A stretch of DNA of 44,328 nt from positions 1 to 44,328 of the forward strand of contig JBNGIO010006370.1 of assembly GCA_049999805.1 (NCBI GenBank), read 5' to 3'. The stretch comes from Folioceros fuciformis (taxonomy: Eukaryota). Under the pieces are notes generated by a model. That model searched no databases and was not told the DNA's origin. It saw only the letters and a list, made by a program, of their open reading frames with translations. Below are positions 12,251-39,131 of this stretch, one piece after another (positions within the stretch are counted from its first letter, which is position 1; each line of letters begins with the position of its first letter). The position numbers and the translations under genes were made by a program.

Positions 12251-14600
12251 ATGACGTCCTCAGAAAATGTTATGTTCAATATCGAGAAGTTAGATGGTAC
12301 TAACTTCCCGTTTTGGAAAGAACAAGTGTACAATGTTCTAATGCACAAGAAGCATATCAAGCCCATAAAGTTGCTAGGAGTGAAACCTGTTAGCATGACT
12401 TAGGATGAGTGGCAGGATCTAGATGAGCTTGCTAGGTCTACCATCATGCTAATATTATCGAAGTCGGTCTACTTCAATGTGAAAGACTAGACCACAAGTT
12501 ACGAGCTATGGCAGAAGTTGTGACCTGTGTGAGAAGCAAAGTGCGGCTTCTCAGGTGTACAAGTTGAAACAGCTGGTGGACTTGAAGATGAAGAAAGGGA
12601 CAAGGATGTCCGATCATCTAAATGAGTTCAATATCATTTTCAGCCAGCTCTCATCTCAAGGTATCTTGTTCCTAGATTCTGTGAGAGCTATGTTTATGTT
12701 GGTCACATTACTAGAGAGTTGGGACACCTTTTGTACAGCTCTGAGTAATTCCGCTCCTGCCAGTGGTCTTACCATTGTAAATGTAGAAGGTAGCCTGTTA
12801 ACAGAGGAGGTGAACAGGAAGAAATTTGGAACCTTCGAAAGGTTCCAATGCCCTCATGGTGAGAGGAAGGTCCACTTCAAAGGGGAAGTACAAGGAGCGA
12901 AGTCTTTCCCGTAGCAAATCTCGTAGTTGTAACAATGTTGAGTGTTACCATTGTCACAAAAAGGGTCACATCAAAAGGGACTGTGAGAAGTTCAAGAAGG
13001 ACAAAGGAAAGAGAAGAAGTAGAGCGACAACAAGGCAAGTCCGAGTATTAAGCATGATGAGGCGAATTATGTTGATGATGGAGATGTTTTTATCTCTTCT
13101 TCCTTTGATTATGCACAACTAACAGCCGTGGGGAGTCACTTATTCTCTAATTGGATAATTGGCTCTGGAGCATCTTTCCATGTTACTCCGCATAGGAAGT
13201 GGTTTAGCACCTATGATGCTACTCGGAAATGATGTGTTCGGCTTGGAAATAACTACGCATGCGAGATTGCAGGCGTTGGTGATGTGCAGCTAAAGTTTAA
13301 CAACGGATCTTCATTCATTTTGAAGGATGTTAGGCATGTTCCGAAGTTGACAAAAAGCATGATTATCGCAGGGTAGTTGGATGATGCTGGCTACCACTGT
13401 TGGTTTGGGGATCATTCTTGGAAGATCTCCAAAGGTTCTCTTGTGTTAGCTTGTGGATCGAAGTGTGGCACTTTGTACTCACTTCAGGTAACCACTGTCA
13501 AGGATCATGTGATTTGTGTAATGGAATAGCCAAGTGTTTCCTTGTGGCATTGTCGATTAGGACATATGTCTCAAAAAGGAATGAAGATCTTATCTCGTTT
13601 TGGTTACGTCCCTGCTTTTGACTTCTCCGATTTCTCCGTGTGTGAGCACTGTTTATATGGGAAACAGACGAAGTCACCACATAGAGCAAGAAGTAAACAC
13701 AAAAGTAAACCTCTTGAATTGGTTCACAGTGACGTTTGTGGACCTATGCCCATTGTATCATTAGGCGGTGCATCCTATTTTGTCACTTTTATAGATGATT
13801 TCTCACGCAAGGTGTGGGTTTATCCTTTGAGGAAAAAGGATGATGTTCTGATAGTGTTTCAGAAATTTGTCACTCTTGTGGAGAATCAGTCTGGCCTCCG
13901 ACTAAAGTGTCTAAGGACAGACAATGGGGGAGAGTATGTTTCGAAGGCTTTCCAGTCATTTTGTGATTCCAAGGGAATCCAGAGAGAATTGATTGCCCCG
14001 TATACTCCTCCCCAGAATGGTGTGGCTGAACGGATGAATAGGACCATCCAGGAGAGGATGTGTGGTTTGTTGTCAAACTCTGGATTGCCTAATGGATTTT
14101 GGGCAGAAGCAGTGGTTACTGCAGTGCATCTTATTAACAAATCTCCTAATAAGGTTGTGGATGAGTAGGTTCTCGAGGAGATGTGGTCTGGAAAGAAGCC
14201 GTCATACAAGCATCTGCGAGTGTTTGGCTGCGAGGCATGTTACCATGTTCTGAAGGAGTTTCGGGACAAATTGGCTCCCAAGTCAAGAAAATGTATTTTT
14301 CTTGGCTATGGTGAATTTGGTGAGATGGGATACCGTCTATGGGATCCAGAGGCCAAGAAGGTTGTTTGCAGCAATGACATGTTCTTCAATGAGACCAAGA
14401 TGCACAAGAAGCCTACTCCAACTGTGGAGGTGGGACGGGTGGTCTTCTAAGAGGATGGACTTGACCGTCCCGCGCAGGTTGAACGTTATGATGTGCAGGA
14501 ACCAGTTCCTCCACTGGTAGAAGAGGAGAGAGTGCAACCAGCTCCGGTCGAGGTGCCTGTGCTTCATAGGTCAAGATTCACATCCTCCTGACAGGTATGT
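12251..14600 (+). mobile_element. Decayed Ty1/copia (Tnt1-like) gag-protease-integrase region
   Basis: gag start IEKLDGTNFPFWK; zinc knuckle CYHCHKKGHIKRDC; protease WIIGSGASFH (catalytic D replaced by G); WHCRLGH..CEHC; integrase LVHSDVCGP, RTDNGGEY, PQNGVAERMNRTI; HLRVFGC, GYRLWDP. Several stops and frameshifts. Confidence 0.95.
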
Positions 14601-15394: not shown

Positions 15395-18300
15395 ATGATG
15401 GATACGATATGGCAACAGGACCCGTTGTGGATCCACCAAATTGGTCTGTGTCCAGGGATACTAGGAGGACGTCCTGCTCACCTCACATTAGGGAGTCAAC
15501 GCCCTGCAACCAACCAATCCTCCAGGAGCAGCGGTTGCACGAGCTCTGGACTTCCACTTCCGGGAAAATGGATGGGCGGGGATAGGGTTTCCAATGATGG
15601 TTGTCGCCAGGAGCAGGACCAGTTGTGGAAACATTTGATTCCGGACCCTACTATGTTGTTAGACACCAGACAAGAAACGAAACGCTCTCGTTCGCCTTAC
15701 CGTATGGGTAGGGGATCCGGCGAGGTCCTGCGCTCAAACAACAAGTTCAAGCCAGCTTGGGATGATGAGCAGCTCGTTTCCTTGGACATGCAGATCGGTC
15801 AGGGTGCCTCTCCTTCCGCGTCGAGGTCTCCGAATAAGCTTGAACCTGGGAGGGGTGCAGGATCTGAAATGGGCGTCGTAACGGCTGGGACAGTGAGCAA
15901 GTTGTGTCAGCAGGGGGAGCTCTCTGACGCCGTTGTAGCCCTGGAATCTCTGGTGCAGACAGACTCTGCTATATCTCGGTCTCTGTTTTACACCGTGCTA
16001 AAACTGTGTGCAGCTAAGAAAGATATGGCCGTGGGGCGACGAGTACATCAACTCATCGTCAAACTTGGGTGCGAGTCGAATGCATATCTGGGGAACCATA
16101 TCTTGCGCATGTATGCATCTGGAGGTAGGCTGCAGGAGGCCATGGATGTATTCACCCGGGTGGGCAAACCAGATGCCTTCATGTGGTATTCCATAATCTC
16201 TGCATATGCTAAACATGGGAAGCCCGAAGGGGCCATACAGCTATACCACGCGATGCGGAGGTCAGGGGTGAAGGCGAATGCTCACATCTTTGTAGCTGCC
16301 CTTCAAGCTTGTGCCTTTGCAGTCGACTTGGAATCTGGCAGAGAAGTGCACTGCGATGTGTTGCACAGTGGCATTCCTACCAACCTGTTTGTTGGCAACT
16401 GCCTGGTGGACATGTATGCAAAATGTGGTGAACTGCAGAATGCACGCCAGGTTTTTGAAAGCATGGGCGAAAAGGATGTGGTGACGTGGACGACGCTGAT
16501 TGCTGGATACACACAGGGAGGGCTCAGCCAAGAGGCTCTCGTTGTGTATGAACGAATGGATCGGGAAGGACTAATTGTTGCTAACCATGTTACTTTTGCT
16601 TGCCTTCTGAAGGCCTGTGCAAGCGTTGGTGCTTTGCAGAAAGGCAGGCAGCTGCACTCACAAATTGTAGAACGAGGACTGCTCGATAACGTACTAGTGG
16701 GCACCTGTCTGGTGGACATGTATGCAAAATGTGGCGAACTGGAAGATGCACGCAGTGTTTTCGACAGCATGGCCACAAAAACTATGGTGACATGGACGGC
16801 CCTGCTGGCTGGGTATGCGCAGCAAGGCTTCGGACATGCCGCACTTGGTGTGTATGGACTTATGGAGGAGGAGGGCCTTATTTTGGCTGACCACATTACT
16901 TTTGCTTGCCTTCTGAAGGCCTGTGCAAGTGTTGGCGCCTTACAGACGGGTAGGCATCTTCACTCGCAGATTGTGGAACGAGGACAGCTAGATAACGTGC
17001 TGGTGGGCAACTGCCTGGTGGACATGTATGCAAAATGTGGCGAATTGGAAGATGCACGAGATGTTTTTGACAGCTTGGCCACAAAGGATGTGGTAACATG
17101 GACCGCCCTGATATCTGGGTATGCCCAGCAGGGCCTTGGACATGAGGCACTTGTTCTGCACGGACGAATGGAACAGGAGGGGCTGATTTTGGCTAACCAT
17201 GTTACTTTTGCTTGCCTGCTGAACGCTTGTGCAAGCACGTGTGCCTTACAACAGGGCAAAAAGCTGCACTCTCAGGTTGTCGAAAGAGGACTGCTGGACA
17301 ACGTAGTGTTGGGCAACTGCCTGGTGGACATGTATTCAAAATGTGGTGAACTGGAAGAAGCACGCCAGGTGTTTGACGGCCTGGCAGAAAAGGATGTGGT
17401 GACATGGAATGCTCTGATATCTGGGTATGCACAGCAAGGCCTCGGCCAAGAGGCACTTGTTCTGTTTGGACAAATGGAGCAGGACGGGCTGATTTTGGCT
17501 AACCAGGTTACTTTTGCTTGCCTTCTGAAGGTCTGTGCAAGCTCTGGTTCCTTACAGAGGGGCAGGCAGCTGCACTCACAGATTGTTGAAAGAGGACTGC
17601 TGGATGGCGATGTAGCGTTGGGCAACTGCCTGGTGGATATGTATTCAAAATGTGGAGAACTAGAGGAAGCACGCCAGGTTTTTGACCGCTTGACCACAAA
17701 AGATGTGGTGACATGGACCGCCCTGATATCTGGTTACGGTAATTGTGATGAGGGTCACAAGGCATTAGCTTGTTTCGAGGATATGTTAGTTACTGGTATT
17801 CAGCCTAATGATACAACTTTTACTTGCCTTTTGGTAGCATGTAGTCATGGGGGACTAGTCCGGGAGGGTCGCAAGTACTTTGATTCCATGGCTGAACAGC
17901 ATGGCATCAAACCTACTATTGAGCATTACACTTGTATGATTGATCTTCTTGGGCGTGCTGGGCATTTAGATGAGGCAGAGAAGATGCTTTCCTTATGCGA
18001 GGCCCGAACTAATGTTGTGGGATTGACGTCTTTGTTGAATGCTTGCAAAAATCACGGGGATCTAGAGAGGGCGTTGTGGTGTTTTGAAAGCATTGTTAGG
18101 CTGGATCCTCAGTGGGCGTCTGCCTACGTGCTCATGGCCAATGCCTATGCAGATGCGGGTAGGTGGGCTGACGTGGACAGGATTGAGACACAGAGAATAG
18201 GCGCAGGAGCTAACAAGAAACCTGCAGTGGCGACCGTTGAAGTGAATAAGCAGGTGCATAGATTTCTGGTGGGAGACAGAAGCGAGGATATTGCGCTGAA

Positions 18301-18619
18301 GGTAGAGAGCACGAATGCACGTGTGAAGGAGGAAGGAGGTCATGTGCCTCACACAAAGTTGGTGTTAAAGCCAATGTGTGAGAAGGAAAAGGAAGACGCG
18401 CTTTGTGGGCATGCTGAGAAGCTAGCTCTGGCGTTTGGTCTGTTGAACACTCCGAGTGGGACACCTCTGGTGGTAACGAAGAATCTACGGATGTGCAGTG
18501 ACTGCCACAGTTCCACGGAGATCATGTCTAGGCTTGAACACAGGGACATTGTTGTGCGGGATGGGTACCGTGTACATCGGTTTGCAAACGGTTGTTGCAG
18601 TTGTAAAGATCGACCATGA
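15395..18619 (+). CDS. PLS-class PPR protein with E1/E2 and DYW:KP domain (ends ...CKDRP); candidate organellar U-to-C RNA editing factor
   Basis: 1074-aa intronless ORF with P-L-S triplets at a 306-bp period. KKPAVATVEV, HAEKLA, CSDCH, C-terminal DRP. Confidence 0.95.
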   Translation: MMDTIWQQDPLWIHQIGLCPGILGGRPAHLTLGSQRPATNQSSRSSGCTSSGLPLPGKWMGGDRVSNDGCRQEQDQLWKHLIPDPTMLLDTRQETKRSRSPYRMGRGSGEVLRSNNKFKPAWDDEQLVSLDMQIGQGASPSASRSPNKLEPGRGAGSEMGVVTAGTVSKLCQQGELSDAVVALESLVQTDSAISRSLFYTVLKLCAAKKDMAVGRRVHQLIVKLGCESNAYLGNHILRMYASGGRLQEAMDVFTRVGKPDAFMWYSIISAYAKHGKPEGAIQLYHAMRRSGVKANAHIFVAALQACAFAVDLESGREVHCDVLHSGIPTNLFVGNCLVDMYAKCGELQNARQVFESMGEKDVVTWTTLIAGYTQGGLSQEALVVYERMDREGLIVANHVTFACLLKACASVGALQKGRQLHSQIVERGLLDNVLVGTCLVDMYAKCGELEDARSVFDSMATKTMVTWTALLAGYAQQGFGHAALGVYGLMEEEGLILADHITFACLLKACASVGALQTGRHLHSQIVERGQLDNVLVGNCLVDMYAKCGELEDARDVFDSLATKDVVTWTALISGYAQQGLGHEALVLHGRMEQEGLILANHVTFACLLNACASTCALQQGKKLHSQVVERGLLDNVVLGNCLVDMYSKCGELEEARQVFDGLAEKDVVTWNALISGYAQQGLGQEALVLFGQMEQDGLILANQVTFACLLKVCASSGSLQRGRQLHSQIVERGLLDGDVALGNCLVDMYSKCGELEEARQVFDRLTTKDVVTWTALISGYGNCDEGHKALACFEDMLVTGIQPNDTTFTCLLVACSHGGLVREGRKYFDSMAEQHGIKPTIEHYTCMIDLLGRAGHLDEAEKMLSLCEARTNVVGLTSLLNACKNHGDLERALWCFESIVRLDPQWASAYVLMANAYADAGRWADVDRIETQRIGAGANKKPAVATVEVNKQVHRFLVGDRSEDIALKVESTNARVKEEGGHVPHTKLVLKPMCEKEKEDALCGHAEKLALAFGLLNTPSGTPLVVTKNLRMCSDCHSSTEIMSRLEHRDIVVRDGYRVHRFANGCCSCKDRP

Positions 18620-20380: not shown

Positions 20381-20860
20381 CTGTTAAGTATCTTCTTTTT
20401 CTTTTCAATATCTGACAATTCAGTCCATGACAAAAATCCACTTAAATAAAACTCTTCTTCTTCAGTTACACTTCTTTTTTAAGAATATAAATAAAGAGGA
20501 AGAATTGACTCCTTCGCTAAACCCTAGACTCAGCTCTAATTGCTCGTTTAGGTTGCCCGGTTACGACTTGGAGAGGAGGTCTACAGCAACACGCTCCCCG
20601 CACACAGTACGAAAGAGCAGGAAATCCGGCAATTGGTATGGAACATTTGTCCTCGTTTTGCAAGCCGACGACAGCGGTAAACCAAAGGCTGCAGCAGCGG
20701 CCGATGTCATCAGCTGGACGCGGATGGATGTCCTGTGTCGGCGTCTCAGAATGCATAACCATAACCTAAGGATGAATCCAAGCAAGCGAGCACCTTCACG
20801 CCCAAGAGAAAACTTAATGCAAAACTCTCAAGCTTAATAATGGCCAGTTTTTCGTTCATC

Positions 20861-23464
20861 TCATGGTCGACCCTTACAACTGCAACAACCAGCTGCAAAT
20901 CGATGCACACGGTAGCCATCCCTGACAACAATGTCTCTTTGCTCAAGCCTGGACATGATCTCCGTGGAGCTGTGGCAATCACTGCACATGCGTAGATTCT
21001 TTGTCACCACCAGAGGTGTCCCACTCGGAGTGTTCAATAGACCGTATGCCAGAGCTAGCTTCTCAGCATGCCCGCAAAGCACATCTTCCTTCTCCTTCTC
21101 GGACAGTGGCTTCAACACCAACTTGGTGTGAGACGTATGGCCTCCTTCCTCTTTCAGACGTGCATTCGTGGTCTCTGCCTTCAGCGCAATGTCATCTCTT
21201 CTTTCTCCCACCGTAAATGTATGCACCTCATTCTTCACCTCAATGCTCGCGACTGCAGGTTTCTTGTTTGCTCCTGCTACCATTCTGTCTGTTTCAATCC
21301 TGTCCACGTCAGTCCACCTGCCTGCATCTGCATAGGCATTGGCCATTAGCACATATGCGGACGCCTGCTGAGGGTCAAGGCCAACCAGGCTTTCAAAACA
21401 CCGCAGTGCCCTTTCTATGTCCCCATGACTTCTGCAGGAATTCAACAAAGAGGTCAAGGCCACAACATTAGTTCGGGCCTCGCATGACAATAGCATTCCC
21501 TCTGCCTCATCTAAATGGCCTGCGCGCCCGAGAAGATCAATCATGCAAGTGTGATGCTCGATCGTGGGCGTGATGCCATGTTGTTCAGCCATGGAATCAA
21601 AGTGCTTGCGACCCGCCTGGACTAGTCCCTCATGACTGCATGCTACTAGAAGGCAGGTAAAACTAGCATGATCAGGCTGAATACCAGCACCTAACATCTC
21701 CTCAAAGCAAGCTAGGGCTCTGTGACCATCATCACATGCACCATACCCAGCTATCAGGGCATTCCATGTTATCACATCCTTAGTGGCCAAGCTGTCAAAA
21801 ACTTGGCGTGCATCTTCCAGTTCACCACATTTTGCATACATGTCCACCAGGAAGTTGCCCAACACAACGTTATCCAGCAGTCCTCGTTCGACTATCTGTG
21901 AGTGCAGCTGCCTGCCCTTCTGCAAGGCACCAGTGCACGCACAGGCCTTCAGAAGGCAAGCAAAAGTCACGTGGTTAGCCAAAGTCAGGCCCTCCTGCTC
22001 CATTCGTCCATACAGAACAAGTGCCTCATGTCCAAGCCCTTTGTGGGAATACCCAGCGATCAGTGCTGTCCATGTCACCACGTCTTTACAGACCAGGCTT
22101 TCAAAAACCTGGCGTGCATCGTCCAGTTCCCCCCATTTGGCATACATGTCCACCAGGCAGGTGCCCACCATTATGTCATTCAACAGTCCCCTTTCCACAA
22201 TCTGTGAGTGCAGCTGCCTGCCCTCCTGTAAGGCACCAGTGTTTGCACAGGCCTTCAGAAGGCAAGCAAAAGTAGCACGATTAGCCACAATCAGACCCTC
22301 CTGCTCCATTCGTTCGTACACAACAAGCGCCTCTCGGGTGAGACCTCGCTGTGCATACCCATCAATCAGCGCCGTCCATGTCACCACATCCTTTTCCGCC
22401 ATGCTTTCAAAAACCTGGCGCGCACCTTTCAGCTCACCACATTTTGCATACATGTCCACGAGGGAGTTGCCAACAAACAAGTTGGTAGGAATGCCACTGT
22501 GCAACACATCCCAGTGCACTTTTCTGCCGGATTCTAAGTCAGCGGCAAATGCACAAGCCTGAAGGGCAGCTACAAAGACGTGAGCATTCGCCCTCACTCC
22601 TGACCTTCGCATCCCATGGTACAGTCGTATGGCTTCTTCAGGCTTACCATGTTTAGCGTAAGCAGATATCATGGAGAACCACATGAAGACATCTGGTTGA
22701 GCCACCCTGGTGAACACATCCATGGCCGCCTGCAGCCTACCTCCAGATGCATACATGCGCAAGATGTGGTTCCCCAAGTATGCATTCGACTCGTACCCAA
22801 GTTTGACAGTGAGGTCATGAACTCGTCTCCCCACAACCAAATCTTTCTTGGCTGCACACAGTTTCAGCACTGTGTAAAACAGAGACCGAGAGATGGCAGA
22901 GTCTGTCTGCACCAGAGATTCCAGGGCTACGACGGCCTCAGAGAGCTTCCCTTGCTGACATAACTTGCTCACGGTTCCAGATGTTACGACGCCCATTTCA
23001 GTTCCTGCACTCCTTTCAGATTGAGGCTGACCCATAGAGCTGGACGTGGAAGGAGAGGCACCGTAATTAATCTGCATGTCCATGGAAACGAGCTGCGCAT
23101 CAACCCAAGCTGGCTTAAACATCCCGTTTAACCACAGAACCTCGCCAGACCCCTTACGCCGGAAGTCAGGCGCACGAGAGCTCGTCTTATCTCGTCTGTT
23201 GTCCCACCACATGGCAGGGTCCATAAAAAACTGTTGCCACAAGTGCTCCTGCTCCTGGCGACGACCATCGCTAGAAACTCCATCTCCACTCACAAATTTT
23301 GTCTCAAGTGGAAATGCTGGGCTCCTCACACTGCTGCACCTGGAGGCTTTGTTTCCAAGGGGTTGACTTCCTAAACCTTGGTGAGCGGAAGATCCTCCTA
23401 AAATTCTTGTACGCACACCAATTTGTTGGCTCAAAAACGGGTTCGGTTGCCATACGGTCACCAT
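20861..23464 (-). CDS. PLS-class PPR-DYW:KP protein (ends ...CKGRP) with an intact N-terminal OSB/PDF-like motif
   Basis: 867-aa ORF. LWQQFFMDPAMWWDNRRDK...PDFRRKGSGEVLWL...PAWV, then PLS repeats, KKPAVASIEV, HAEKLA, CSDCH, GRP. Confidence 0.95.
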   Translation of the reverse strand: MVTVWQPNPFLSQQIGVRTRILGGSSAHQGLGSQPLGNKASRCSSVRSPAFPLETKFVSGDGVSSDGRRQEQEHLWQQFFMDPAMWWDNRRDKTSSRAPDFRRKGSGEVLWLNGMFKPAWVDAQLVSMDMQINYGASPSTSSSMGQPQSERSAGTEMGVVTSGTVSKLCQQGKLSEAVVALESLVQTDSAISRSLFYTVLKLCAAKKDLVVGRRVHDLTVKLGYESNAYLGNHILRMYASGGRLQAAMDVFTRVAQPDVFMWFSMISAYAKHGKPEEAIRLYHGMRRSGVRANAHVFVAALQACAFAADLESGRKVHWDVLHSGIPTNLFVGNSLVDMYAKCGELKGARQVFESMAEKDVVTWTALIDGYAQRGLTREALVVYERMEQEGLIVANRATFACLLKACANTGALQEGRQLHSQIVERGLLNDIMVGTCLVDMYAKWGELDDARQVFESLVCKDVVTWTALIAGYSHKGLGHEALVLYGRMEQEGLTLANHVTFACLLKACACTGALQKGRQLHSQIVERGLLDNVVLGNFLVDMYAKCGELEDARQVFDSLATKDVITWNALIAGYGACDDGHRALACFEEMLGAGIQPDHASFTCLLVACSHEGLVQAGRKHFDSMAEQHGITPTIEHHTCMIDLLGRAGHLDEAEGMLLSCEARTNVVALTSLLNSCRSHGDIERALRCFESLVGLDPQQASAYVLMANAYADAGRWTDVDRIETDRMVAGANKKPAVASIEVKNEVHTFTVGERRDDIALKAETTNARLKEEGGHTSHTKLVLKPLSEKEKEDVLCGHAEKLALAYGLLNTPSGTPLVVTKNLRMCSDCHSSTEIMSRLEQRDIVVRDGYRVHRFAAGCCSCKGRP

Positions 23465-24039
23465 CCTTCAGGGACCCCGTCGGAGGCTTAGTCTAACAAC
23501 AGTCTCCTGCAGGATGTCTGAGAAGGAGAGTGCAGACGACTCAGTGTTGAGTGCCCATGGCGAAAAACACAACACCAAAGGAGTAGAACATGGTCTAAGA
23601 TAGTACAGTTGCCAAATGCCAATGCCTCCGACGGCAGCAGGGCATGGGGCCATCGCGGTGGTCGGAATGGCTTATCGGTGCTGGTGACCAAGGCATGGCA
23701 ACGTCGACCGGGTTGAGCATACATGGCCCATGCTCTGCATAAGCACATTTTGCCCATACACACGTCCTCGCGTGGCCTGATAAGTTTGCCGCTTGGGGGA
23801 GAGCGGCAAACGCCTTGACCGTGCCAGGAGGTGTGAGAAAGGTTTGGAATTCGTCATATCACGCTAAGTTTCCGTTGAAGGAGGAGTAGAGTACCTAGAC
23901 TAACTCGGGGAATGGCAAACACGGCATCAGGTCGGCGAGAAGGCTCCGGCCTGGAGAGTCTAACGTGCGTTGCGAGTGTGAGCTCACGAGCGTTCTCTTC
24001 TTGTTGAGGTGGGAAGAATCGCGGCCGGGGTGAGCAGAG

Positions 24040-25818
24040 ATGCCTGCGTCAAGGCAATTGTGGCGGGCGGTGAGCCGGGGGAAGAGCCTCCGTCACACAT
24101 CTGCTCTGGATGAGTTCCATCCCTGGAGAGTGGTGGCGGCACAGGCTTGTGCTGCCATGGGTGGAGATGGTCGCAGGGAGACGGGCTTATGGAGGAGCAG
24201 GAGCCTCGCATCTTCTGCGCCTTGGGTGTCCTCCTTTTCCACCTGCCCCCCTCTAGTGTCTGCTAGATTTTGCTCTGGGGGTGCTGCCCTGCAAGAGAGT
24301 CCCGACAGTGTGGCATCTTCACCTTCCAAGGTGAAATTGTTCATCGGCGGCGAATTCATCGACTCCCACTCCTCAGAGTGGATCCATGTGGTCAATCCTG
24401 CTACCCAGGAGAGCGTGTCTCAAGCTCCCCTCACCACTTCTGCGGAGTTTGATGCGGCCGTGGCAGCTGCCAAGATGGCTTACCCTAAGTGGAGGGACAC
24501 TCCTGTTACCTCCCGGCAGAGAGTGATGCTCAAGTTCCAGGAGTTGATCCGCCGGGACATGGAGAAGCTGGCAAGGATTGTGACTCTGGAGCAGGGGAAG
24601 ACTCTTGCGGATGCCAGAGGAGACGTGTTCCGAGGGCTGGAAGTGGTAGAGCAGGCGGCAGCCATGGCCAATTTTCAGATGGGGGAGTTTGTGGAGAACG
24701 TGTCTAGCGGAATAGACACGTACAGCATCAGGCAGCCGCTTGGAGTTTGTGCAGGGATCTGCCCTTTCAATTTTCCGGCTATGATTCCGCTGTGGATGTT
24801 CCCCTTTGCAGTCACCTGCGGGAACACATTTATCCTGAAGCCTTCCGAGAAGGATCCAGGGGCTGCCATGCTGCTGGCGGAGCTGGTATCGGAGGCCGGG
24901 CTGCCACCTGGGGTTCTGAATATTGTGCACGGCACTCACGGAGTTGTGGATGCCATTTGCGACCACCCGGACATCAAGGCCATCTCCTTCGTGGGCTCGG
25001 ATGTGGCCGGGATGCACATCTACCAGCGGGCATCTGCCAAGGGGAAGCGTGTGCAGTGCAATATGGGCGCCAAAAACCATGCTGTCATCATGCCGGATGC
25101 TAGCCCGGAGACCACGGTGAATGCCCTTGTAGGAGCTGCGTTCGGCGCCGCTGGGCAGAGGTGCATGGCCATCTCTACTGCCGTGTTCGTAGGTGATTCC
25201 AAGCCCTGGGAAGACAAGCTGAAGGAGAAGGCCAGGTTGCTGAAGGTGACTGCCGGGATGGAGGATGGTGCAGACCTTGGGCCGGTGATCAGCAAGCAAG
25301 CCAAGGAGCGAATCCTGTCCCTCATCGAGAGCGGGGAGAAGCAGGGTGCTAGGGTCGTTCTGGATGGCCGCAACCTTCAAGTGGCTGGCTATGAGAAAGG
25401 CAACTTTATAGGTCCCACCATCCTCGCCGATGTGAAAACTGACATGGCTTGCTATCAGGAGGAGATTTTTGGACCAGTTCTGGTGTGTCTGCAGGTTAGC
25501 AGTCTAGAGGACGCCATCCAGCTTATCAATAACAACAGGTACGGCAATGGCACTGCTATCTTCACCAACTCGGGGGTGGACGCAAGAACCTTTCAGCATG
25601 AGATTGAGGTGGGGCAGGTGGGCATCAACGTGCCCATCCCCGTACCGTTGCCCTTCTTCTCCTTCACGGGATCAAGAGCGTCTTTCGCAGGGGACCTCAA
25701 CTTCTATGGGAAGGCCGGAGTTAACTTTTACACACAGATCAAGACTGTTACGTCCCAATGGAAACAGAAAGAGGGACGAGGAGTAGCGATGGCATTTCCC
25801 ACATCCCAGAAAGTGTGA
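24040..25818 (+). CDS. ALDH6B2: Mitochondrial methylmalonate-semialdehyde dehydrogenase (acylating), ALDH family 6
   Basis: 592-aa [43 protein letters not shown] (catalytic Cys), [16 protein letters not shown]. Arg/Ser-rich N-terminal extension. Confidence 0.95.
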
Positions 25819-27314: not shown

Positions 27315-28999
27315 TACTATCCACGGTACCCATCTCGTCCAGCAATGTCTCTCTTTTTAACCTTGGACATGATCTCGGTCGAACTGTGGCAGTCGATGCA
27401 CAGGCGCAGATTCTTGGTTACAGCAAGAGGGTGTGTGCCATTCGAAGTGTTCAAGAGGCCAAACGCTAGAGCTAGCTTCTCAGCAGATAAAAGTAAAAGT
27501 AGTATCGTCAGGCTGAATACCAGAAACTAACATCTCTTCAAGACAAGCTACAGCCTTATGACCTTCACCAAAAGCACCACACCCAACTATCAGAGCACGT
27601 TCCACGTCACGACAGTCTTTGTAGCCCAGCTTTTAAAAACCTAGCATGCAGCTTCAAGTTTGGCACTTTTTGCATACGTCCACCAAGCAGGTTCCCAACA
27701 CGATATTATCCAGCAGTCCTCTTTCAACAATCTGCGACCGAAGCTCTCGGCCCATCTGTAAGGCACCACTGCTTGCACAGGCCTTCAGAAGGCGAGTAAA
27801 AGTAACATGGTTAGCAAAAACCAGGCCGTCTTGCTGCATTTATCTATACAGAGCAAGAACCTCTTGGCCGAGCCATTGCTGTCTGCGCATACCCAGCGAG
27901 CTGTGCATTCCATGTCACCACATCCTTTGAAGCCAAGCTATCAAAAACCCGGCATGCATCTCCGAGCTCACCACATCTTGCGTTTAAGTCCACCAGGCAG
28001 TTTCCAACAAACAGGTCAGGAGGAATGCCACTCTGCAACACATCACAGGTGCACTTTTCTGCCAGACTCTAAGTCGGCGTCAAATGCACAAGCTTGAAGT
28101 GCAGCTACAAAGACGTGGGCATCTGCCTCCACTTCTGACCTCCGCATATCATGGTACGGTCGTACGGCCTCTTCAGGTTTCCCATGCTTGGTGAATGCGG
28201 AGATTATGAAAAACAACATGAATGCGTCTGGTTTGCCGACCCTGGTGAACACAGCCATGGCCTCCTGCAGCCTCCCTCCATATGCATACGTGAGCAGAAC
28301 ATGGTTCTCCAAGTCTGCATTCCACTCTTACCCTAGTTTGACACAAAGGTCATGCACTCGTCGCGCCACAGGCAGATCCTTCTTAGCAGCACCCAGTTTC
28401 AGGACAGTATAGTACAGAGAGTGAGAAACAGCAGAGTCTGTATCCGCCAAAGCCTGCAAGGCTCCAACAGCATCAAGAAGCATCCCCTGCTGACATACAT
28501 CTGCACGGTTCCCCACCCCTCACTCATCCTGCGTGCCTCCCGGGTCCAGTGCTACCAGGAGAGCTCCACTTGGAAGAGGGTGCACCATGACCCAACTGGC
28601 TATCCAAAGAAACGAGGTGCTCATCGACCCAAGCAGGCTTCAGCATGCAGTTTAACCATAGGACCTCGCTAGAACCCTTACGCCGGAAGTCAGGCGAAAG
28701 GGAGCTCTTCTTAACTCGCCTGTTGTCCCACCACAAGGAAGGGTCCAGAAAGAATTGTTCCCACGACTGCTCCGGCTCCTGCTCCTGGCGCACCGTCGCT
28801 GAAACCCACGTTGGCGCCCACACATTTCCCCGGAAGTGGTGGTCCTCGACTCCGCACACTGTTGCAACTGGAGGCTTGGTTGTTTGCGGGGGGTTGACTC
28901 CCTGAGCTGAGCTGGACCTGTTCGTGCATGAGCGGGAGCTCCTCGTGGAATCCCTGTGCACACTACCCACAACAGGTCCAATTCAAACGTAGTGGCCAT
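27315..28999 (-). pseudogene. PPR-DYW:KP pseudogene with frameshifts and an internal deletion
   Basis: ATG at 28999 (MATTFE..). PDF-like WWDNRRVKKSSLSPDFRRKGSSEVLWL. Fragmented PLS ORFs. GIQPDDTTFT jumps directly to AEKLA...NLRLCIDCHSSTEIMS. Confidence 0.9.
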
Positions 29000-29518
29000 C
29001 CTTCAGAGCCTGCGGTCGGTGAAAGAGGCTAGTAGCAAACCAAGGCAGATGGCCAGGTATTGGGCATTGCCACACAACTCTGAAGAAGAATGCAAACGGT
29101 TCATTGTTACATATCGACCAAACACGTCTCGAGACTTTGGGCCGTGAGCCCAGCTTCGTCGCAGGCTGCGACATCGAGCAACCTAGCCTCGTCTAGAGCT
29201 AAAAGGGACAAGCATAGTCAAGTCCTCGTCGAAGGGCACTTGGTAGTCAGTGGGAAGTTGTTTATCTCACGCAGTCTCAAGGCCGAACGCCGGCCAACGA
29301 GACCGAGAGAGTGTGTGTAGCCGATCAAGAACGACAGCTCGCAATACATGGAGGACGTGTGGTTTCCTACGTATGTGCAAGGGGGAGGCCTGCATCGAGA
29401 GCTTACGGCGTTTGGCCTGATCGGTAGTCTGTCTGTGATTGGCTAAAGAATTAGTGCAGATTTTGCCATGTATAGGTAGTTGGTGTCCGCATCATCTTCT
29501 AAGAGCAGTGTGGGTACC

Positions 29519-32212
29519 ATGGCCACGGCGTGGCAAACGGATCCGGTGTGGACCCAACAAATTGGCGACTGTACAGGCATTCTACGAGGAGCCTCTGCTT
29601 ACCTCATGACACCAGGGAACAACCAACTCTCCAGGTGCGGCAGTGTCAGGAACTCAGCCCTTCCAAGTTGGAAAGGATGTGTGCGCGGGGAAGGATTTTT
29701 CAGGGACCGTCGTAGCCAGGAGCAGGAAAATGGGCTCCTGAGGAAACATGTGTTTCAGGACCCTAGCATGTGCTGGGACACTGGGCGAGATAAGCAGGGA
29801 TCCCGTTCACCTGACTTACCGCGTAGGAGGTCCGCCGGCGAGGTGCTCTGGTTACACGCGTACAAGCCGACTTGGGTGGACGAGCATGTACGGGGTCTGG
29901 ATTTGCAGATGGGTCATGGTGCGTCTCCTCCCAAGTCGAGCTATCCGGATAAGCGAGAGCCCGTCAGGCGTGCAGGCTCAGAAAGGGAGGTCTCAAAGAC
30001 TGCAGCCGTGAGCGCATTATGTCAGCAGGGAAAGCTTACGGAGGCCGTTGGGGCCCTGGAGTGTCTGGCGCGCGCGGACTGTTCTATTCCCTCGTCTGTG
30101 TTGTATGATGTGTTAAAACTGTGTACATTGAAGAAGGATTTAGTTGTGGGGAAACGAGTCGATGATCTCATTGTCGCACTTGGATGCGAGTCGAATGCAT
30201 TCTTGGGGAACCATCTCTTGCGCATGTACGCAAGCGGAGGTAGGCTACAAGAGGCCATGGATGTGTTCACCAGGGTGGGCACACCAGATGCCTTCATGTG
30301 GGGTTCCGTAATTTCCGCGTATGCTAAGCATGGGAAACCCAAGGAGGCCATTCAACTTTTCCATCAGATGCGTAGGTCGGGTGTGAAGGCGGATGCTCAC
30401 GTCTTTGCAGCTGCCCTTCAAGCTTGTGCACTGGCTGCCGACTTGGAATCTGGCAGAGGAGTGCACTTGGATGTGTTGCACAGTGGCATTCCACTTAATT
30501 TGTTCCTTGGCACGTGCGTAGTGGACATGTATGCAAAGTGTGGTGAGCTGAGAGATGCACGAAGGGTTTTCGACGGCTTGGCCGCGAAGGATGTGGTGAC
30601 ATGGACTGCCCTGCTTGATGGGTATGCACAAAAAGGGCTCGGCCAAGAGGCACTTTCTCTGTACGAAGAAATGGAGAAAGAGAGCCTGATTTTGGCCAAC
30701 GATGTGACTTTTGCTTGCCTTTTGAAGGCCTGTGCAAGCACCGGTGCCTTGCAGAGGGGGAGACAGCTGCATTCGCAGATTGTGAAAAGAGGACTCCTCA
30801 ATAACACACTAGTTGGCACCTGCCTTGTGGACATGTATGTAAAGTGTGGTGAACTACAAGATGCACGTAAGGTTTTTCAGAGCTTGGGCACAAAAAATGT
30901 GGTGACGTGGACGACCCTTGTCGCTGGGTATGCAAAATGTGGAGCACTGGAAGTTGCACGCCAGGTCTTCGACAGCATGGCCACAAAGGATGTGGTGACA
31001 TGGACGGCCCTTATTGCCGGGTATGCAAGTCATGAGCTCGGTGAAGAGGCACTTGTTCTCCATGGACAAATGGAGCAGGAAGGCCTGGTTGTGGCTGACC
31101 ATGTCACTTTAGCCTCCCTTTTGAGGGCCTGTGCGAGCACTGGTGCCTTACAGACTGGCAGGCAGCTGCACTCACAGATTGTGGAAAGAGGACTCGTAGA
31201 TGACATGCTGGTTGGCACGGGCCTGGTTGACATGTATGCGAAATGTGGTGCCATGGAGTATGCACGCCAAGTTTTTGACCGCTTGGTCTCAAAGGATGTG
31301 GTGACATGGACGGCCCTGATCGCAGGGTATGGTACTTGTGATGATGGTCACAGAGCACTGGCTTGTTTTGAGGAAATGTTAGCCGCCGGTATCCGGCCTG
31401 ATGATGCAACGTTTACTTGCCTTTTAGTGGCATGCAGTCACGAGGGACTGGTACATGAGGGACGCAAGCTCTTTGATTCCATGGCTAAACAGCATGGCAT
31501 TGAACCTAATGTTGAGCATTACAGTTGCATGGTTGATCTTCTTGGGCGTGCGGGCCAGTTAGGTGAGGCAGAGAACCTGCTATTATCATGTGAGGCTCGA
31601 AGAGATGTTGTGGGGTTGACGTCTTTGCTGAACGCCTGCAAAAGTCACGGTGACACAGAGAGGGCAAGGCGATGTTTTGAAGCCCTTGTTCTGCTGGACC
31701 CTCAGCGGACGTCAGCATATGTACTTATGGCCAATGCGTATGCAGACGCAGGTAGGTGGGCCGATGTAGACAGGATCGAAACACAGAGAAGGGTAGCAGG
31801 AGCAAAGAAGAAGCCTGCAGTAGCGAGCATTGAGGTGGAAAAGCAGGTACATAGATTTCTAGTTGGCGAAAGAAGTGAGGATATTGCTCTCAAGGTAGAG
31901 ATCACGAATGCCCGTCTGAAGCAGGAAGGAGGCCACGTCCCCCACACAAAGTTGGTGTTGAAGCCACTGTCTGAGAAGGAAAAGGAAGACGTGCTTTGTG
32001 GGCATGCGGAGAAGCTAGCTCTGGCGTATGGTCTGCTGAACACTCCGAGTGGGACACCTCTGGTAGTAACGAAGAATCTGCGAATGTGCAGTGACTGTCA
32101 CAGTTCCACGGAGATCATGTCGAAGCTTGAAAATAGAGACATTGTTGTAAGGGATGGCTACCGTGTGCATCGGTTTGCCGCTGGTTGCTGCAGTTGTAAG
32201 GGTCGACCGTGA
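29519..32212 (+). CDS. PLS-class PPR-DYW:KP protein (ends ...CKGRP), includes an SS-type motif
   Basis: Frame is open from 29480. ATG 29519 (MATAWQ) matches the paralogue starts. KKPAVASIEV, HAEKLA, CSDCH, GRP. Confidence 0.95.
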   Translation: MATAWQTDPVWTQQIGDCTGILRGASAYLMTPGNNQLSRCGSVRNSALPSWKGCVRGEGFFRDRRSQEQENGLLRKHVFQDPSMCWDTGRDKQGSRSPDLPRRRSAGEVLWLHAYKPTWVDEHVRGLDLQMGHGASPPKSSYPDKREPVRRAGSEREVSKTAAVSALCQQGKLTEAVGALECLARADCSIPSSVLYDVLKLCTLKKDLVVGKRVDDLIVALGCESNAFLGNHLLRMYASGGRLQEAMDVFTRVGTPDAFMWGSVISAYAKHGKPKEAIQLFHQMRRSGVKADAHVFAAALQACALAADLESGRGVHLDVLHSGIPLNLFLGTCVVDMYAKCGELRDARRVFDGLAAKDVVTWTALLDGYAQKGLGQEALSLYEEMEKESLILANDVTFACLLKACASTGALQRGRQLHSQIVKRGLLNNTLVGTCLVDMYVKCGELQDARKVFQSLGTKNVVTWTTLVAGYAKCGALEVARQVFDSMATKDVVTWTALIAGYASHELGEEALVLHGQMEQEGLVVADHVTLASLLRACASTGALQTGRQLHSQIVERGLVDDMLVGTGLVDMYAKCGAMEYARQVFDRLVSKDVVTWTALIAGYGTCDDGHRALACFEEMLAAGIRPDDATFTCLLVACSHEGLVHEGRKLFDSMAKQHGIEPNVEHYSCMVDLLGRAGQLGEAENLLLSCEARRDVVGLTSLLNACKSHGDTERARRCFEALVLLDPQRTSAYVLMANAYADAGRWADVDRIETQRRVAGAKKKPAVASIEVEKQVHRFLVGERSEDIALKVEITNARLKQEGGHVPHTKLVLKPLSEKEKEDVLCGHAEKLALAYGLLNTPSGTPLVVTKNLRMCSDCHSSTEIMSKLENRDIVVRDGYRVHRFAAGCCSCKGRP

Positions 32213-33355: not shown

Positions 33356-35641
33356 ATGGCAACAGTGTGGCAGCCGGAGCTGTTGCGGACTCAGCAAATT
33401 GGTGAGTGTACCGGGATCCTACGAGGTGCTCCCGCGCACCTCACCTTCGGCAATCAACTGCTGGGAGAAAATCAAGTCTCCAGGTGCGGCATTGTAAGGA
33501 ACCCAGCATTTCCAGTTTGGAGAGAAGGTGTGGGTGGGAAAAGATTTTCCAGGGTTGGTCATCGAAAGGAGCAGGAGCACTTGTGGTTGTGGCCACAATG
33601 TTTGCTGGACCATAGCATTTGCTGGGACAACAGTCTATACAGGAAGAGCTCTCGTTCCGCTGACTTCCGGCGTAAGGGCTCTGGCGGCGAGGTCCTCCGC
33701 TTAAACATAGGAGCGGTAAATGGCGTCATGCCGGCAGAAACTGTGATCAGGTCATGTCAGCAGGGAAAGCTTACTGAGGCCGTTGGAGCCTTGGAGTACC
33801 TGGCTCAGGCAGGCTGTCCCATATCTACTTCTCTCTTTTATAGTGTGATAAAACAGTGTACAGCCAAGAAGGATTTGCTTCTGGGAAGACGAGTTCACGA
33901 GCTCACCACCAAACTTGGGTACGAGTCGAATGCATACTTGGGGAACCATCTCTTGAGGATGTATGCTTCTGGAGGTCGGCTACAGGAGGCTATGGATGTG
34001 TTCACCAAGGTGCGCAAACCAGATGCCTTCATGTGGTCTTCTATGATGTCCGCATGCGCCAAACATGGGAAACCTAGAGAGGCCATACAACTGTACCGTG
34101 AGATGCGTTGTTCAGCTGTGAAAGCGGATGCTCACGTATTTGCAGCTGCCCTTCAAGCTTGTGCACTTGCCAAAGACTTGGAATCTGGTAGAAAAGTGCA
34201 CTGTGATGTGTTAGGCAGTGGCATTTCGTTTACCATGTTTGTTGGCACCTGCCTGGTGGACATGTATGCAAAATGTGGCGAACTGGAAGCTGCACGCCAG
34301 GTTTTCGACAGCTTGGCCACAAAAAATGTTGTGACGTGCAATGCCCTCATAGCTGGGTACGCAAATATTGGCGACCTGAATGGTGCACGCAGGGTCTTTG
34401 ACAGCTTGGCGGCAAAGGATGTGGTGACATGGACGGCCCTGATTGCTGGGTATGTAAAGCATGACCTCGCCCAAGAGGCTCTTGGTTTGTACAGAGAGAT
34501 GGAGCAGGAGGGCATCACTGTGGCTGACGGTGTTGTTCTCGCGTGTCTTCTGAAGGCCTGTGGAATGGCAGGGGCCCTACAAAAGGGCAGGCAGCTGCAC
34601 TCGCAGATTGTGCAAAGAGGATTGCTTGATAACGTACTGGTTGGCACGTGCCTGGTAGACATGTATGCAAAATGTGGAGAACTGGCAGAAGCACGCAGGG
34701 TTTTTAACAGCTTGGCCACAAAGGATGTTGTGTCATGGACGACACTGATCTCTGGGTATGGTGCTTGTGATGATGGTCACAACGCACTAGCCTGCTTTGA
34801 GGAGATGCTAGTTTCCGGCATTCGGCCTGATGAAGCTACATTTACTTGCCTTTTGGTTGCTTGCAGTCATGAGGGACTGGTGCATGAAGGTCGCAAGCAC
34901 TTCGATTCCATGGCTGACCGGCACAGCATCCAACCTACTATCGAGCATTACAATTGCATGATTGATCTTCTTGGTCGGGCTGGCCATTTGGATGAGGCAG
35001 AGCAAATGCTGTTCTCCTGCGAGGATCAGAGCAATGTTGTTGGGCTGACGTCTTTGCTGAATTCCTGCAAAAGTCACGGGGACATAGAGAGGGCGGCACG
35101 GTGTTTTGAGAGCCTAGTTAGACTGGACCCTCAGCGGGCGTCCACGTATGTGCTCATGGCCAATGCCTATGCTGATGCAGGTAGGTGGACCGATGTCGAG
35201 AGGATTGAAGCACAGAGGATGATAGCTGGAGCTAATAAGAAACCCGCAGTGGCGGGCATCGAGCTCAAGGAGCAGGTGCATACATTTGTGGTGGGAGAAA
35301 GGACAGATGACATTGCTCTTAAGGTAGAGGGCACGAATGCACGGCTGAGGCAGGAAGGAGGTCACATTCCCCAGACAGAGTTGGTGTTGAAGCCACTGCT
35401 GGAGAAGGAAAAGGAAGATGTGCTTTGTGGGCATGCCGAGAAGCTGGCTCTAGCGTTTGGTCTCCTGAACACTCCCCGTGGAACACCTTTGATGGTTACG
35501 AAGAACCTACGCATGTGCAGTGACTGTCACAGTTCCACGGAGATTATGTCAAGGATTGAAAGGAGAGAGATTGTGGTGAGGGATGGGTATCGCGTGCATC
35601 GATTTGCATCTGGTTGTTGCAGTTGTAAGGGCCGCCCGTGA
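33356..35641 (+). CDS. PLS-class PPR-DYW:KP protein (ends ...CKGRP), shortest array
   Basis: Frame is open from 33323. ATG 33356 (MATVWQ). KKPAVAGIEL, HAEKLA, CSDCH, GRP. Confidence 0.95.
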   Translation: MATVWQPELLRTQQIGECTGILRGAPAHLTFGNQLLGENQVSRCGIVRNPAFPVWREGVGGKRFSRVGHRKEQEHLWLWPQCLLDHSICWDNSLYRKSSRSADFRRKGSGGEVLRLNIGAVNGVMPAETVIRSCQQGKLTEAVGALEYLAQAGCPISTSLFYSVIKQCTAKKDLLLGRRVHELTTKLGYESNAYLGNHLLRMYASGGRLQEAMDVFTKVRKPDAFMWSSMMSACAKHGKPREAIQLYREMRCSAVKADAHVFAAALQACALAKDLESGRKVHCDVLGSGISFTMFVGTCLVDMYAKCGELEAARQVFDSLATKNVVTCNALIAGYANIGDLNGARRVFDSLAAKDVVTWTALIAGYVKHDLAQEALGLYREMEQEGITVADGVVLACLLKACGMAGALQKGRQLHSQIVQRGLLDNVLVGTCLVDMYAKCGELAEARRVFNSLATKDVVSWTTLISGYGACDDGHNALACFEEMLVSGIRPDEATFTCLLVACSHEGLVHEGRKHFDSMADRHSIQPTIEHYNCMIDLLGRAGHLDEAEQMLFSCEDQSNVVGLTSLLNSCKSHGDIERAARCFESLVRLDPQRASTYVLMANAYADAGRWTDVERIEAQRMIAGANKKPAVAGIELKEQVHTFVVGERTDDIALKVEGTNARLRQEGGHIPQTELVLKPLLEKEKEDVLCGHAEKLALAFGLLNTPRGTPLMVTKNLRMCSDCHSSTEIMSRIERREIVVRDGYRVHRFASGCCSCKGRP

Positions 35642-36547: not shown

Positions 36548-39131
36548 TCACGGTCGCCCCTTGCAACTGCAACAACCATTTTCGAATCTATGCACACGGT
36601 ACCCATCCCTTACAACAATGTCTCTCTGTTCGAGCCTTGACATGATCTCCGTGGAACTGTGGCAGTCGCTACACATGCGGAGATTCTTAGTCACCACCAG
36701 AGGTATCCCACTCGGTGTCTTCATCAGACCATACGCCAGAGCTAGCTTCTCAGCATGCCCACAAAGGGCATCTTCCTTTTCCTTCTCAGACAGTGGCTTC
36801 AACACCAACTTCGTCTGTGGTACATGGCCCCCTTCCAGCTTCAACCGCGCGTTTGTGCTCTCTACCTTTGACGAGATGTCATCTCTCCTTTCTCCCACCG
36901 AAAATACATGTATCTGCTTCTTCACCTCGATGCTTGCCACTGCAGGTTTCTTGTGAGCACCTGCTGTCCTTCTCTGTGTTTCAATCCTGTCTACATCGCT
37001 CCACCGACCTGCATCTGCATAGGCATTGGCCATGAGCACATAGGCGGGTGCCCATTGAGGGTCCAGCCTAACAACGCTTTCAAAACACCACACTGCCCTC
37101 TCTACATCCCCGTGGCTTTTGCAGGCATTCAACAAAGACGTCAAGCCCACAACATTGGTCTCGCTTTCACATGCTAACAACATCTTCTCTGCCTCTTGTA
37201 AATGGCCAGCACGACCAAGAAGATCAACCATGCAGTTGTAATGCTCAATGGTAGGCTTGATGCCATGCTGCTCAGCCATGGAGTGAAAGTGCTTGCGACC
37301 CTCATGCACCAGCCCCTCATGACTGCATGCTACCAAAAGGCAAGTAAAAGTTGCATCATTAGGCTGAACACCGGCACCCAACATTTCCTCGAAACAGGCT
37401 AGTGCCTTGTGACCATCATCAGAAGCACCATAGCCCGATATCAGGGTCGTCCATGTCACGACGTCCTTTGTAGGCATGCTGTCGAAAACCTGGCGTGCAG
37501 CTTCCAGTTTGCCACATTTTGCATACATGTCCACCAGGCAGTTGCCCAGCACTACGTTATCCAGCAGTCCTCTTTCAACAATTTGTGAGTGCAGCTGCCT
37601 GCCCTTCTGTAAGGCACCAGTGCTTGCACAGGCGTTTAAAAGGCAAGCAAAAGTAACATCGCTAGCCAATATCAGGCCCTCCTGCTCCAGTTGTCCATAC
37701 ACAGCAAGTGCCTCGTGTCCGAGCCCTTGGTGGGCATACCCGGCAATCAGCGCCGTCCATGTCACCACATCCTTTTTTGCCAAGCTTTTGAAAACCCGGT
37801 GTGCATCTTCCATTTCACCACATTTCACATACATGTCCACGAGGCAGTTGCCCAAGACTAAGTCATGCAGCAGTCCTCTTTCAATAACCTGTGTGTGCAG
37901 CTGCCTGCCTGTCTGCAAGGCACCATTGCTTGCACAGGCACTCAGAAGGCAAGAATAAGTAATAGGGTCAGCCAAAATGAGGCCCTCTTGTTCCATTTGT
38001 CCATAGAGCACAAGTGCCTCTTGGCCCAACCCTTGCTGTGCATACCCCGAAATCAAGGCATTCCATGTCACCACATCCTTCGTAGCCAAGCTTTCAAAAA
38101 CCAGGAGAGCCTCTTTCAGTTCGCCACATTTAGAATACATGTCCACCAGGCCGTTGCCAACGAATAAGTTACTAGGAATGCCACTGAGCAACACGTCACA
38201 GTGCACTTTCCTGCCAGATTCCAAGTCAGCGGCCAATGCACAGGCTTGAAGGGCAGCCACGAAGACGTGAGCGTCCGCCTTCACTCCTGACCTGCCCATC
38301 TCATGGTACAAATGTATGGCCTCCTTAGGTTTCCTGTGTTTAGCATGAGCAGAGATTATGGAAAACCACATGAACACATTTGGTTGGTCCACCCTAGTGA
38401 ACACATCCATGGCCTCCTGCAACCTACCGCCACATGCATACATGCGCAAGATGTGATTCCCCAAGTACGCATTCGACTGGTACCCAAGTTGGACTGTGAG
38501 GTCATGAACTCGTCGGCCCAAGCCCACATCCTTCTTAGCTGCGCACAGTTTGAGCACGGCATAAATCAGAGACTGAGAAACACCAGAATCCGTCTCCGCT
38601 AAACATTCCAGGGCTCCGACGGCCTCTGAAAGCTTCCCTTGCCGACACAACTTGCGCACGGTTACAGCCGAGACGACGCCCATGTCCAATCCTGCACGCC
38701 CGCCATGATCAAGCTGATCCGGAAAGCTCGACTTGGAGGGAGAGGCACCAGAACCCATCTGCATATCCAAAGAAACCAGCTGTTCATCCACCCAAGCTGG
38801 CTTGCACAAGTTGTTTAAGCAGAGGACCTCGCCGGTAGACTCCTCGTAGAGGAAGTTAGGCCAATGCGAGCTCTTCTTACCNNNNNNNNNNNNNNNNNNN
38901 NNNNNNNNNNNNNNNNNNNNNNNNNNNNNNNNNNNNNNNNNNNNNNNNNNNNNNNNNNNNNNNNNNNNNNNNNNNNNNNNNAATGCTGGACCTGCACATG
39001 CACCTGGACGCGGGCCTTTTTACCACCTGCAGGCTCCATGAGGTGAGGTGAGCGAGAGCTCCTCCTACACTCCCTGTACACTGACCAGTTTGATGGGTCC
39101 ACAAGCAATGTGGTTGCCATGCTGTGGCCAT
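36548..39131 (-). CDS. PLS-class PPR-DYW:KP protein (ends ...CKGRP); 5' part crosses an assembly gap
   Basis: 753-aa ORF whose frame stays open up to the N-run (KKSSHWPNF..STGEVLCLNNLCKPAWV). Paralogous start MATAWQ at 39131 lies on the other side of the gap. Continuity is inferred. Confidence 0.85.
38882..38981. other. Assembly gap (100 N); a second 10-N gap at 42101-42110
   Basis: N runs in the sequence. Confidence 1.

Follow-up and report, generated by a model that had tools for sequence, protein, structure and literature searches.

We analysed a 44,328-nucleotide stretch of Folioceros fuciformis DNA (assembly GCA_049999805.1, contig JBNGIO010006370.1, positions 1 to 44,328 of the forward strand), hereafter called the window. 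It is plant nuclear DNA with a tandem cluster of intronless PPR-E-DYW genes. The gene at 20861-23464 on the minus strand, intact and intronless, encodes the 867-residue protein P0001, a predicted organelle-type PPR editor in the DYW:KP (U-to-C) class. Ahead of its first PPR, P0001 carries a stretch whose homology to the PDF motif of the OSB proteins is secure by profile comparison. Both parts, the class of RNA editing and splicing factors and the DNA-binding module, are known; their combination appears to be undescribed. The PDF motif comprises ~50 residues with a conserved Pro-Asp-Phe signature (PMC6963530); it is reported to be responsible for the binding of single-stranded DNA (ssDNA), and in OSB1 to be sufficient for this (PMC6451138, PMC6963530). 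Such binding is known to date only for OSBs of Arabidopsis.

The first-pass annotation had placed an OSB-type PDF motif at 23090-23245, between the leader and the first PPR, and the profile results bear this out. The peptide LWQQFF...KPAWV, residues 75-121 of P0001 (23242-23102, minus strand), follows the acid-poor leader, with the PDF tripeptide at residues 99-101. To avoid circularity, PPR proteins were excluded from the reference profile, which was built from 52 near-full instances found in 29 SSB-domain (OB-fold) proteins and has the consensus ...LWkdlFanPseWWDNRksKknpksPDFKHKetGEALWLesstPsWV.... Among 880 six-frame segments of the window, the P0001 stretch reached 74.8 bits (E 1.7e-22) against this OSB-only profile, a significant similarity to the motif of OB-fold-bearing OSB proteins. 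The top segment outside the PPR genes scored 9.0 bits (E 0.061), and a chance resemblance as the source of the motif was rejected. A 40-row alignment has nine invariant columns (W21, W22, D23, R25, K28, P34, D35, F36, and W55), all of which P0001 keeps, and ten nearly invariant ones, where it departs from a single one (H38 to R); 18 of these 19 conserved columns are retained.

Searching 1.84 billion representative proteins with the 65-residue stretch (phmmer) returned 640 matches at E<=1e-3, of which 184 passed E<=1e-10 and 18 passed E<=1e-30. Many of the matches contain the motif more than once, with a maximum of 13 copies. A word-index search with the motif alone gave four candidates and one match. 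Pfam annotation of the best 150 of the 640 phmmer matches (E<=1e-5) found the SSB/OB fold (PF00436) in 29 and PPRs in 10; the rest comprised one kinesin motor protein, 108 proteins without a family, and two with hits below the gathering score (DUF4927/NifQ and DUF3574). The OSB relation was also visible by name. P0096 (E 9.5e-14) represents a cluster that includes a 'protein osb1 mitochondrial' from Phtheirospermum japonicum, and P0128 (E 3.0e-12) is labelled 'OSB1, mitochondrial-like'. Two SSB-bearing matches stood in OSB1-named clusters, one from Drosera capensis and the other being the Phtheirospermum japonicum cluster of P0096.

Two kinds of unusual protein turned up in the same search. 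P0003 (1160 aa), P0004, P0007, P0010, and P0017 carry 8-13 tandem PDF copies with no Pfam family above the gathering score, well above the range of one to five reported for OSBs in the available text. P0031 (Coptis chinensis, 1526 aa) has three PDF stretches ahead of a kinesin motor, and it may be a mis-joined gene model or another fusion.

The position of the motif separates the two protein classes. In the 29 SSB proteins, the motif follows the OB fold, its first copy beginning 30-80% of the way along the chain; in 35 PDF-bearing PPR proteins, the final copy has ended by 7-45% of the chain length. P0001 has no PF00436 match at E<=1, and its motif is not C-terminal to an OB fold. It is not an OSB; only the module is common to both.

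The rest of P0001 has the layout of a predicted U-to-C editing factor. Residues 1-66 (23267-23464, minus strand, as for all parts of this gene) form a leader that is rich in Ser, Arg, and Gly and holds no acidic residue in its first 53 positions; this composition, typical of an organelle presequence, makes it a presumed transit peptide. The PDF domain, as delimited by the OSB-only profile and the structure model, spans residues 70-130 (23075-23257), with the core motif at 75-121 (23102-23242). A Ser/Gly/Pro-rich linker of ~30 residues, about 131-158 (22991-23074), follows, which from its composition is probably flexible. The PLS-type PPR array covers about residues 159-679 (21428-22990; Pfam PPR 1.9e-69, PPR_2 5.6e-64), with approximate boundaries taken from the sequence, and the E motif residues 680-742 (Pfam E_motif 3.3e-13). 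The DYW:KP deaminase-like domain occupies residues 775-867 (20864-21142; PF14432), the DYW_deaminase match extending over 775-865 at 1.7e-32. It carries the KP signature NKKPAVASIEV and the zinc-binding HxE...CxxC residues as HAEKLA and CSDCH, and it ends in GRP. A PLS array with E and DYW regions, the KP pair, and HxE...CxxC, which define the PPR-DYW:KP class, are all present. The attachment of the motif to the N-terminal side of such a protein, as read in the first pass, was correct. Pfam gave no match in the first 160 residues, the libraries searched containing no PDF model.

AlphaFold2, run with the 40-row alignment, predicted a compact 65-residue unit (mean predicted local distance difference test score 94.4, predicted template modelling score 0.79) with two helices (2-16 and 56-64) and, between them, short strands at 21-23 and 36-38. 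Foldseek gave no match to this model at E<=1e-3, and VIA-align over 48,161 chains reached a best Z of 3.6, with none at Z>=5. A sequence search of the PDB returned chance rows only (best E 0.52), and the ESM Atlas yielded no usable match. The absence of a clear solved relative does not show that the predicted fold is new.

The fusion extends well beyond this gene. Eight of the ten PPR-bearing matches came from ferns (two from Adiantum, one each from Ceratopteris and Pteridium), lycophytes (two from Diphasiastrum, one from Selaginella), and the moss Sphagnum. Searching with residues 1-330 of P0001 provided 38 proteins for profile scanning (36 new matches together with P0002 and P0143), 26 of which bear one to three PDF copies; these carriers are mainly from Diphasiastrum, with one from the moss Ceratodon. 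A further search with the Ceratodon protein gave 116 new matches, and 13 of them bear the PDF, including three Ceratodon PPR-DYW proteins. These 13 also include the 740-residue PLS-type protein BAN18186.1 / PHYPA_028809 (P0232) of Physcomitrium patens, which has a PDF at residues 68-122 (68.6 bits). Altogether, 48 of the 163 collected PPR proteins have a PDF match, 46 of them a strong one (>=40 bits); because the sets were collected through similarity to the queries and a single lycophyte predominates in them, these proportions are not natural frequencies. The strong carriers have one copy (30 proteins), two (13), or three (3). Moss, lycophyte, and fern PDF-PPR proteins reach 68-85 bits against the OSB-only profile. 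The named carrier genera are Diphasiastrum, Selaginella, Adiantum, Ceratopteris, Pteridium, Sphagnum, Ceratodon, and Physcomitrium, and no seed plant was seen among the named carriers in the best 150 of the 640 matches and the query-like sets. Selaginella moellendorffii itself has the PDF on a PPR protein (P0147 / P0156). A 2014 review, in the text available, lists OSB as not detected in one land-plant column, which we take to be Selaginella, and as lost in 'Pteridophyta'.

The first-pass annotation had tied the fusion to U-to-C editors, and this proved too narrow. Thirteen of the 46 strong carriers end in DYW and only one in GRP (P0192), the rest having PLS or E ends or being cut. Sphagnum P0106 and Diphasiastrum P0127 show the canonical end (...HSE...CGDCH...DYW) with PG or QG instead of KP. 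Among the three collected relatives ending in GRP, the closest KP relatives found, two lack the PDF. Inside the window, the motif has decayed in three other readable intact KP paralogues, and in a fourth it is hidden by an assembly gap. A KP-specific fusion was rejected accordingly. These data show that PG-type, E/PLS-type, and KP-type PPR proteins all bear the PDF domain; its link to U-to-C editing is incidental.

To address the origin of the fusion, we took 99 instances of the motif (46 carried by PPR proteins, those of the window among them, and 53 by SSB proteins), aligned across 62 columns, and inferred a maximum-likelihood tree with a quick search. All 46 PPR-linked instances fell into one group, with a single OSB instance inside it (Shimodaira-Hasegawa-like approximate likelihood ratio test, SH-aLRT, 88). 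The PPR label required 2 changes on the tree, as compared with a mean of 32.9 after shuffling, and none of 500 shuffles was as low. The Ceratopteris OSB P0050 lies among the OSB motifs and the Ceratopteris PPR protein P0102 among the PPR motifs; therefore, the grouping is not merely taxonomic. The closest relative of the window motif is that of the KP protein P0192 (support 89). Given the short alignment and the weak inner support, a single old PDF-PPR fusion is the simplest reading of the tree and is not demonstrated by it. According to this reading, the gene at 20861-23464 would not have gained its PDF but would have inherited it from an old PLS-class PPR line with one to three N-terminal copies.

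The cluster itself shows different fates of the motif. Its five genes have KPAVA in place of the PG box, HAE...CSDCH, and a C-terminal GRP or DRP. DYW:KP proteins are defined by two features of the DYW domain, Lys-Pro instead of Pro-Gly where it begins and a final triplet other than DYW (PMC11845758), so the KPAVA box and the non-DYW ends place all five in this class. In P0001, the core motif is complete (74.8 bits, 18 of 19 conserved columns). The sixth copy, a pseudogene at 27317-29002 (minus strand, ~1.7 kb), has undergone frame changes and has lost internal segments. Its stop-to-stop fragments, with recognisable PPR and DYW pieces, are spread over three frames, and leader and PDF do not share a frame; nevertheless, it retains a full motif at 28602-28787 (minus strand, 65.7 bits, E 1.2e-19, 18 of 19 columns). 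The intact gene at 29519-32212 (plus strand, 897 aa) has a decaying PDF at 29738-29902 (32.1 bits, 11 of 19 columns), and the intact gene at 15395-18619 (plus strand, 1074 aa) a decayed one at 15608-15787 (18.3 bits, 8 of 19 columns). The intact gene at 33356-35641 (plus strand, 761 aa) keeps a first-half remnant at 33566-33685 (11.7 bits, profile positions 3-42, 8 of 19 columns); the alignment shows that the second half of its PDF and the linker were deleted. The leader of the gene at 36548 to ~39131 (minus strand) is interrupted by the assembly gap, an N run at 38891-38981. This run hides the first half of the motif, the second half being found at 38765-38881 (minus strand, 17.1 bits, profile positions 27-63).

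Pairwise Nei-Gojobori comparisons of the paralogues revealed a marked difference between the ends of the proteins. For the C-terminal 330 residues, omega (the ratio of nonsynonymous to synonymous change) was 0.14-0.20 at 78-83% identity. The PDF region gave 0.30-0.99 at 41-71% identity, the leader 0.34-1.02, and the linker (residues 126-165) 0.54-1.08. Between the gene at 20861-23464 and the pseudogene copy, differences were seen in none of the 19 conserved columns, as compared with 17 of the 42 other columns (one-sided Fisher p = 4.7e-4). In all other pairs, the conserved columns were no better protected (p >= 0.22). Our reading of these sequence comparisons is that the cluster ancestor had a working PDF and that selection retained the motif in the line to gene 20861-23464, and in the dead copy until recently. 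In the other readable copies, we read the PDF as having been released from constraint while the enzyme part stayed strongly constrained. Such a pattern of decay is the probable signature of a useful but dispensable accessory part.

Some further features of the window were noted. An uninterrupted open reading frame of 592 residues, with a long N-terminal extension, lies between the PPR genes at 24040-25818 (plus strand); by reading alone, it resembles a methylmalonate-semialdehyde / aldehyde dehydrogenase, and being intron-free it may be a retrocopy. A 200-residue frame at 13566-14168 (plus strand) resembles a retrotransposon integrase core, also by reading alone. Positions 20700-23700, the PDF region included, matched thousands of short contigs of related organisms at 90-95% likeness (runs X2, X5, and X7). 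These contigs are of unspecified kind, fragmentary, and rich in paralogue pieces, and thus uninformative on transcription; their pile-up on the gene points to very large families of such genes in the relatives.

We assign a probability of roughly 0.55 to the reading that the PDF of gene 20861-23464 acts as a tethered, non-specific binder of single-stranded nucleic acid that aids editing and is dispensable. The confident predicted fold, the tandem copies, and the C-terminal position in OSBs argue that the PDF is a domain of the mature protein and not of the presequence, and that it would survive import. There, it would be a small, independently folded unit on a ~30-residue linker at the 5'-facing end of the PPR array. 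Because the N-terminal repeats of a PPR array point toward the 5' side of the bound RNA, a tethered PDF would lie upstream of the recognised sequence. It would add sequence-independent affinity for single-stranded nucleic acid, the candidate ligands being RNA on the 5' side of the PPR footprint and ssDNA exposed in the nucleoid. Binding to either one would raise the local concentration of the editing factor at its targets. The PDF would be an accessory, unnecessary for catalysis and easily lost after duplication. That catalysis can do without it is suggested by the decay in the paralogues, by the designer PLS-DYW:KP proteins, which edit with a thioredoxin tag ahead of the PLS array (PMC9478123), and by the assays of moss PPR56 without its N-terminus (PMC10482289).

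Several observations weigh against this proposal. OSB1 and OSB2 are reported to prefer ssDNA over double-stranded DNA or RNA (PMC4166229), which speaks against an RNA ligand. We found no binding, localisation, or editing data for any PDF-PPR protein. The motif starts only ~10 residues past the acid-poor leader. Most of the cluster paralogues do without the PDF, so any benefit may be small or specific to certain targets. The selection test on the conserved columns involves one pair of sequences. The tree is limited to 62 columns with weak inner support (SH-aLRT 88 in a quick search), and its sampling is uneven, with many Diphasiastrum paralogues and with carriers picked for their similarity to the query.

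A specific form of the tethered-binder reading would place the PDF on exposed ssDNA in transcription bubbles, R-loops, or replication intermediates and thereby position the editor on nascent RNA. The reported preference for ssDNA over RNA favours this idea to some degree, the motif being the ssDNA-binding part of the OSBs and P0001 retaining 18 of the 19 conserved columns of an alignment that includes OSBs. Nevertheless, we consider such tethering to the nucleoid rather unlikely. The PPR-linked PDFs group separately on the tree, which leaves room for a change of ligand; of the four other intact paralogues, three have a decayed motif and the fourth has it hidden by the gap; and the search for data on PDF-PPR proteins yielded no localisation or binding result.

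It is quite improbable that the PDF contacts proteins instead of nucleic acid, through self-association or by recruiting an OSB, another PPR protein, or a helper. AtOSB2 has been reported as a tetramer (PMC6963530), and the conserved face is rich in Trp and Phe and would also suit protein contacts, but the work cited above assigns ssDNA binding to the PDF itself. We hold it to be just as doubtful that the PDF of gene 20861-23464 is a relic that has no present function and has merely not yet decayed. Such a relic would fit the decay in three other intact paralogues, the omega values of up to 0.99, which come near those of the leader and linker, and the dead copy, which likewise retains 18 of the 19 columns. 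The differences between gene and pseudogene, however, spare all 19 conserved columns (p = 4.7e-4), and the 68-85 bits of the PDF-PPR proteins from mosses, lycophytes, and ferns would require long-term constraint. Finally, a role as part of the presequence, removed or unfolded on import and missing from the working enzyme, is very improbable: although the PDF directly follows the presumed presequence and in some carriers starts at model residues 2-11, the latter may be cut gene models, and the confident predicted fold, the up to three tandem copies, and the C-terminal place of the same motif in OSBs speak against it.

Returning to the tethered single-strand binder, a bolder generalisation may be drawn from the distribution. 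The PDF could be an old, general accessory of PLS-class PPR editing and splicing factors in the non-seed land plants, which couples them to nucleoid ssDNA so that editing and splicing begin on the nascent RNA, and which was lost in the seed-plant line. We offer this as a speculation with low odds. If true, a motif so far studied only as a genome-maintenance module would also turn out to serve in RNA processing.

The usual description of a PPR editing factor is a transit peptide followed by PLS-E-DYW, and heterologous editing assays, as far as the available text describes them, normally remove everything ahead of the first repeat. Because the N-terminus is usually left undescribed and is cut away in the assays, a conserved and confidently folded domain on dozens of moss, lycophyte, and fern PPR proteins was an overlooked part of these factors. 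It provides a handle on three questions: how editors find their RNAs in organelles, whether editing is linked to the nucleoid, and what the PDF binds outside the OSBs. For designer U-to-C or C-to-U editors, an added single-strand binder could alter affinity or off-target behaviour. Adjacent sister genes in the window, with intact, decaying, and deleted motifs, amount to a natural experiment.

The literature searched contained no description of a PDF-PPR fusion, although supplements and some key papers lay outside the search and an earlier mention is possible. The papers on the PDF motif, in their accessible text, do not link it to PPRs; one review in which both terms occur brings up PPR solely in connection with RNA polymerases. 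A 2026 survey of OSB evolution used OSB queries and, in the portion available, treated the PDF only within OSBs.

Compared with the OSB proteins, P0001 shares the ~50-residue motif with its Pro-Asp-Phe signature and Trp/Phe pattern, and both are of the plant organelle type. The OSB motif is C-terminal, after an OB fold, whereas that of P0001 is N-terminal, before a PPR array and without an SSB/OB fold, and the two kinds of motif form separate groups on the tree. With the PPR-DYW:KP proteins, which are candidate and designer U-to-C editors such as KP1-KP7 (PMC9478123), P0001 has in common the PLS array, the E motif, the KP pair, HxE...CxxC, and the non-DYW end. In the text available, the described or designed members start at the PLS array or a tag, and P0001 has the PDF in addition. 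In the available list of 2022, the extra domains of Physcomitrium PPR proteins are RRM, LAGLIDADG, SMR, NYN, CBS, and SAP (PMC9459714); the PDF does not appear there, yet BAN18186.1 of Physcomitrium carries one at 68.6 bits. The listed domains sit mostly on P-class PPR proteins, and the PDF on the PLS class. Like the PPR proteins with RRM (PPR4), SMR, LAGLIDADG, NYN, CBS, or SAP domains, P0001 combines a helical-repeat RNA binder with a small extra domain.

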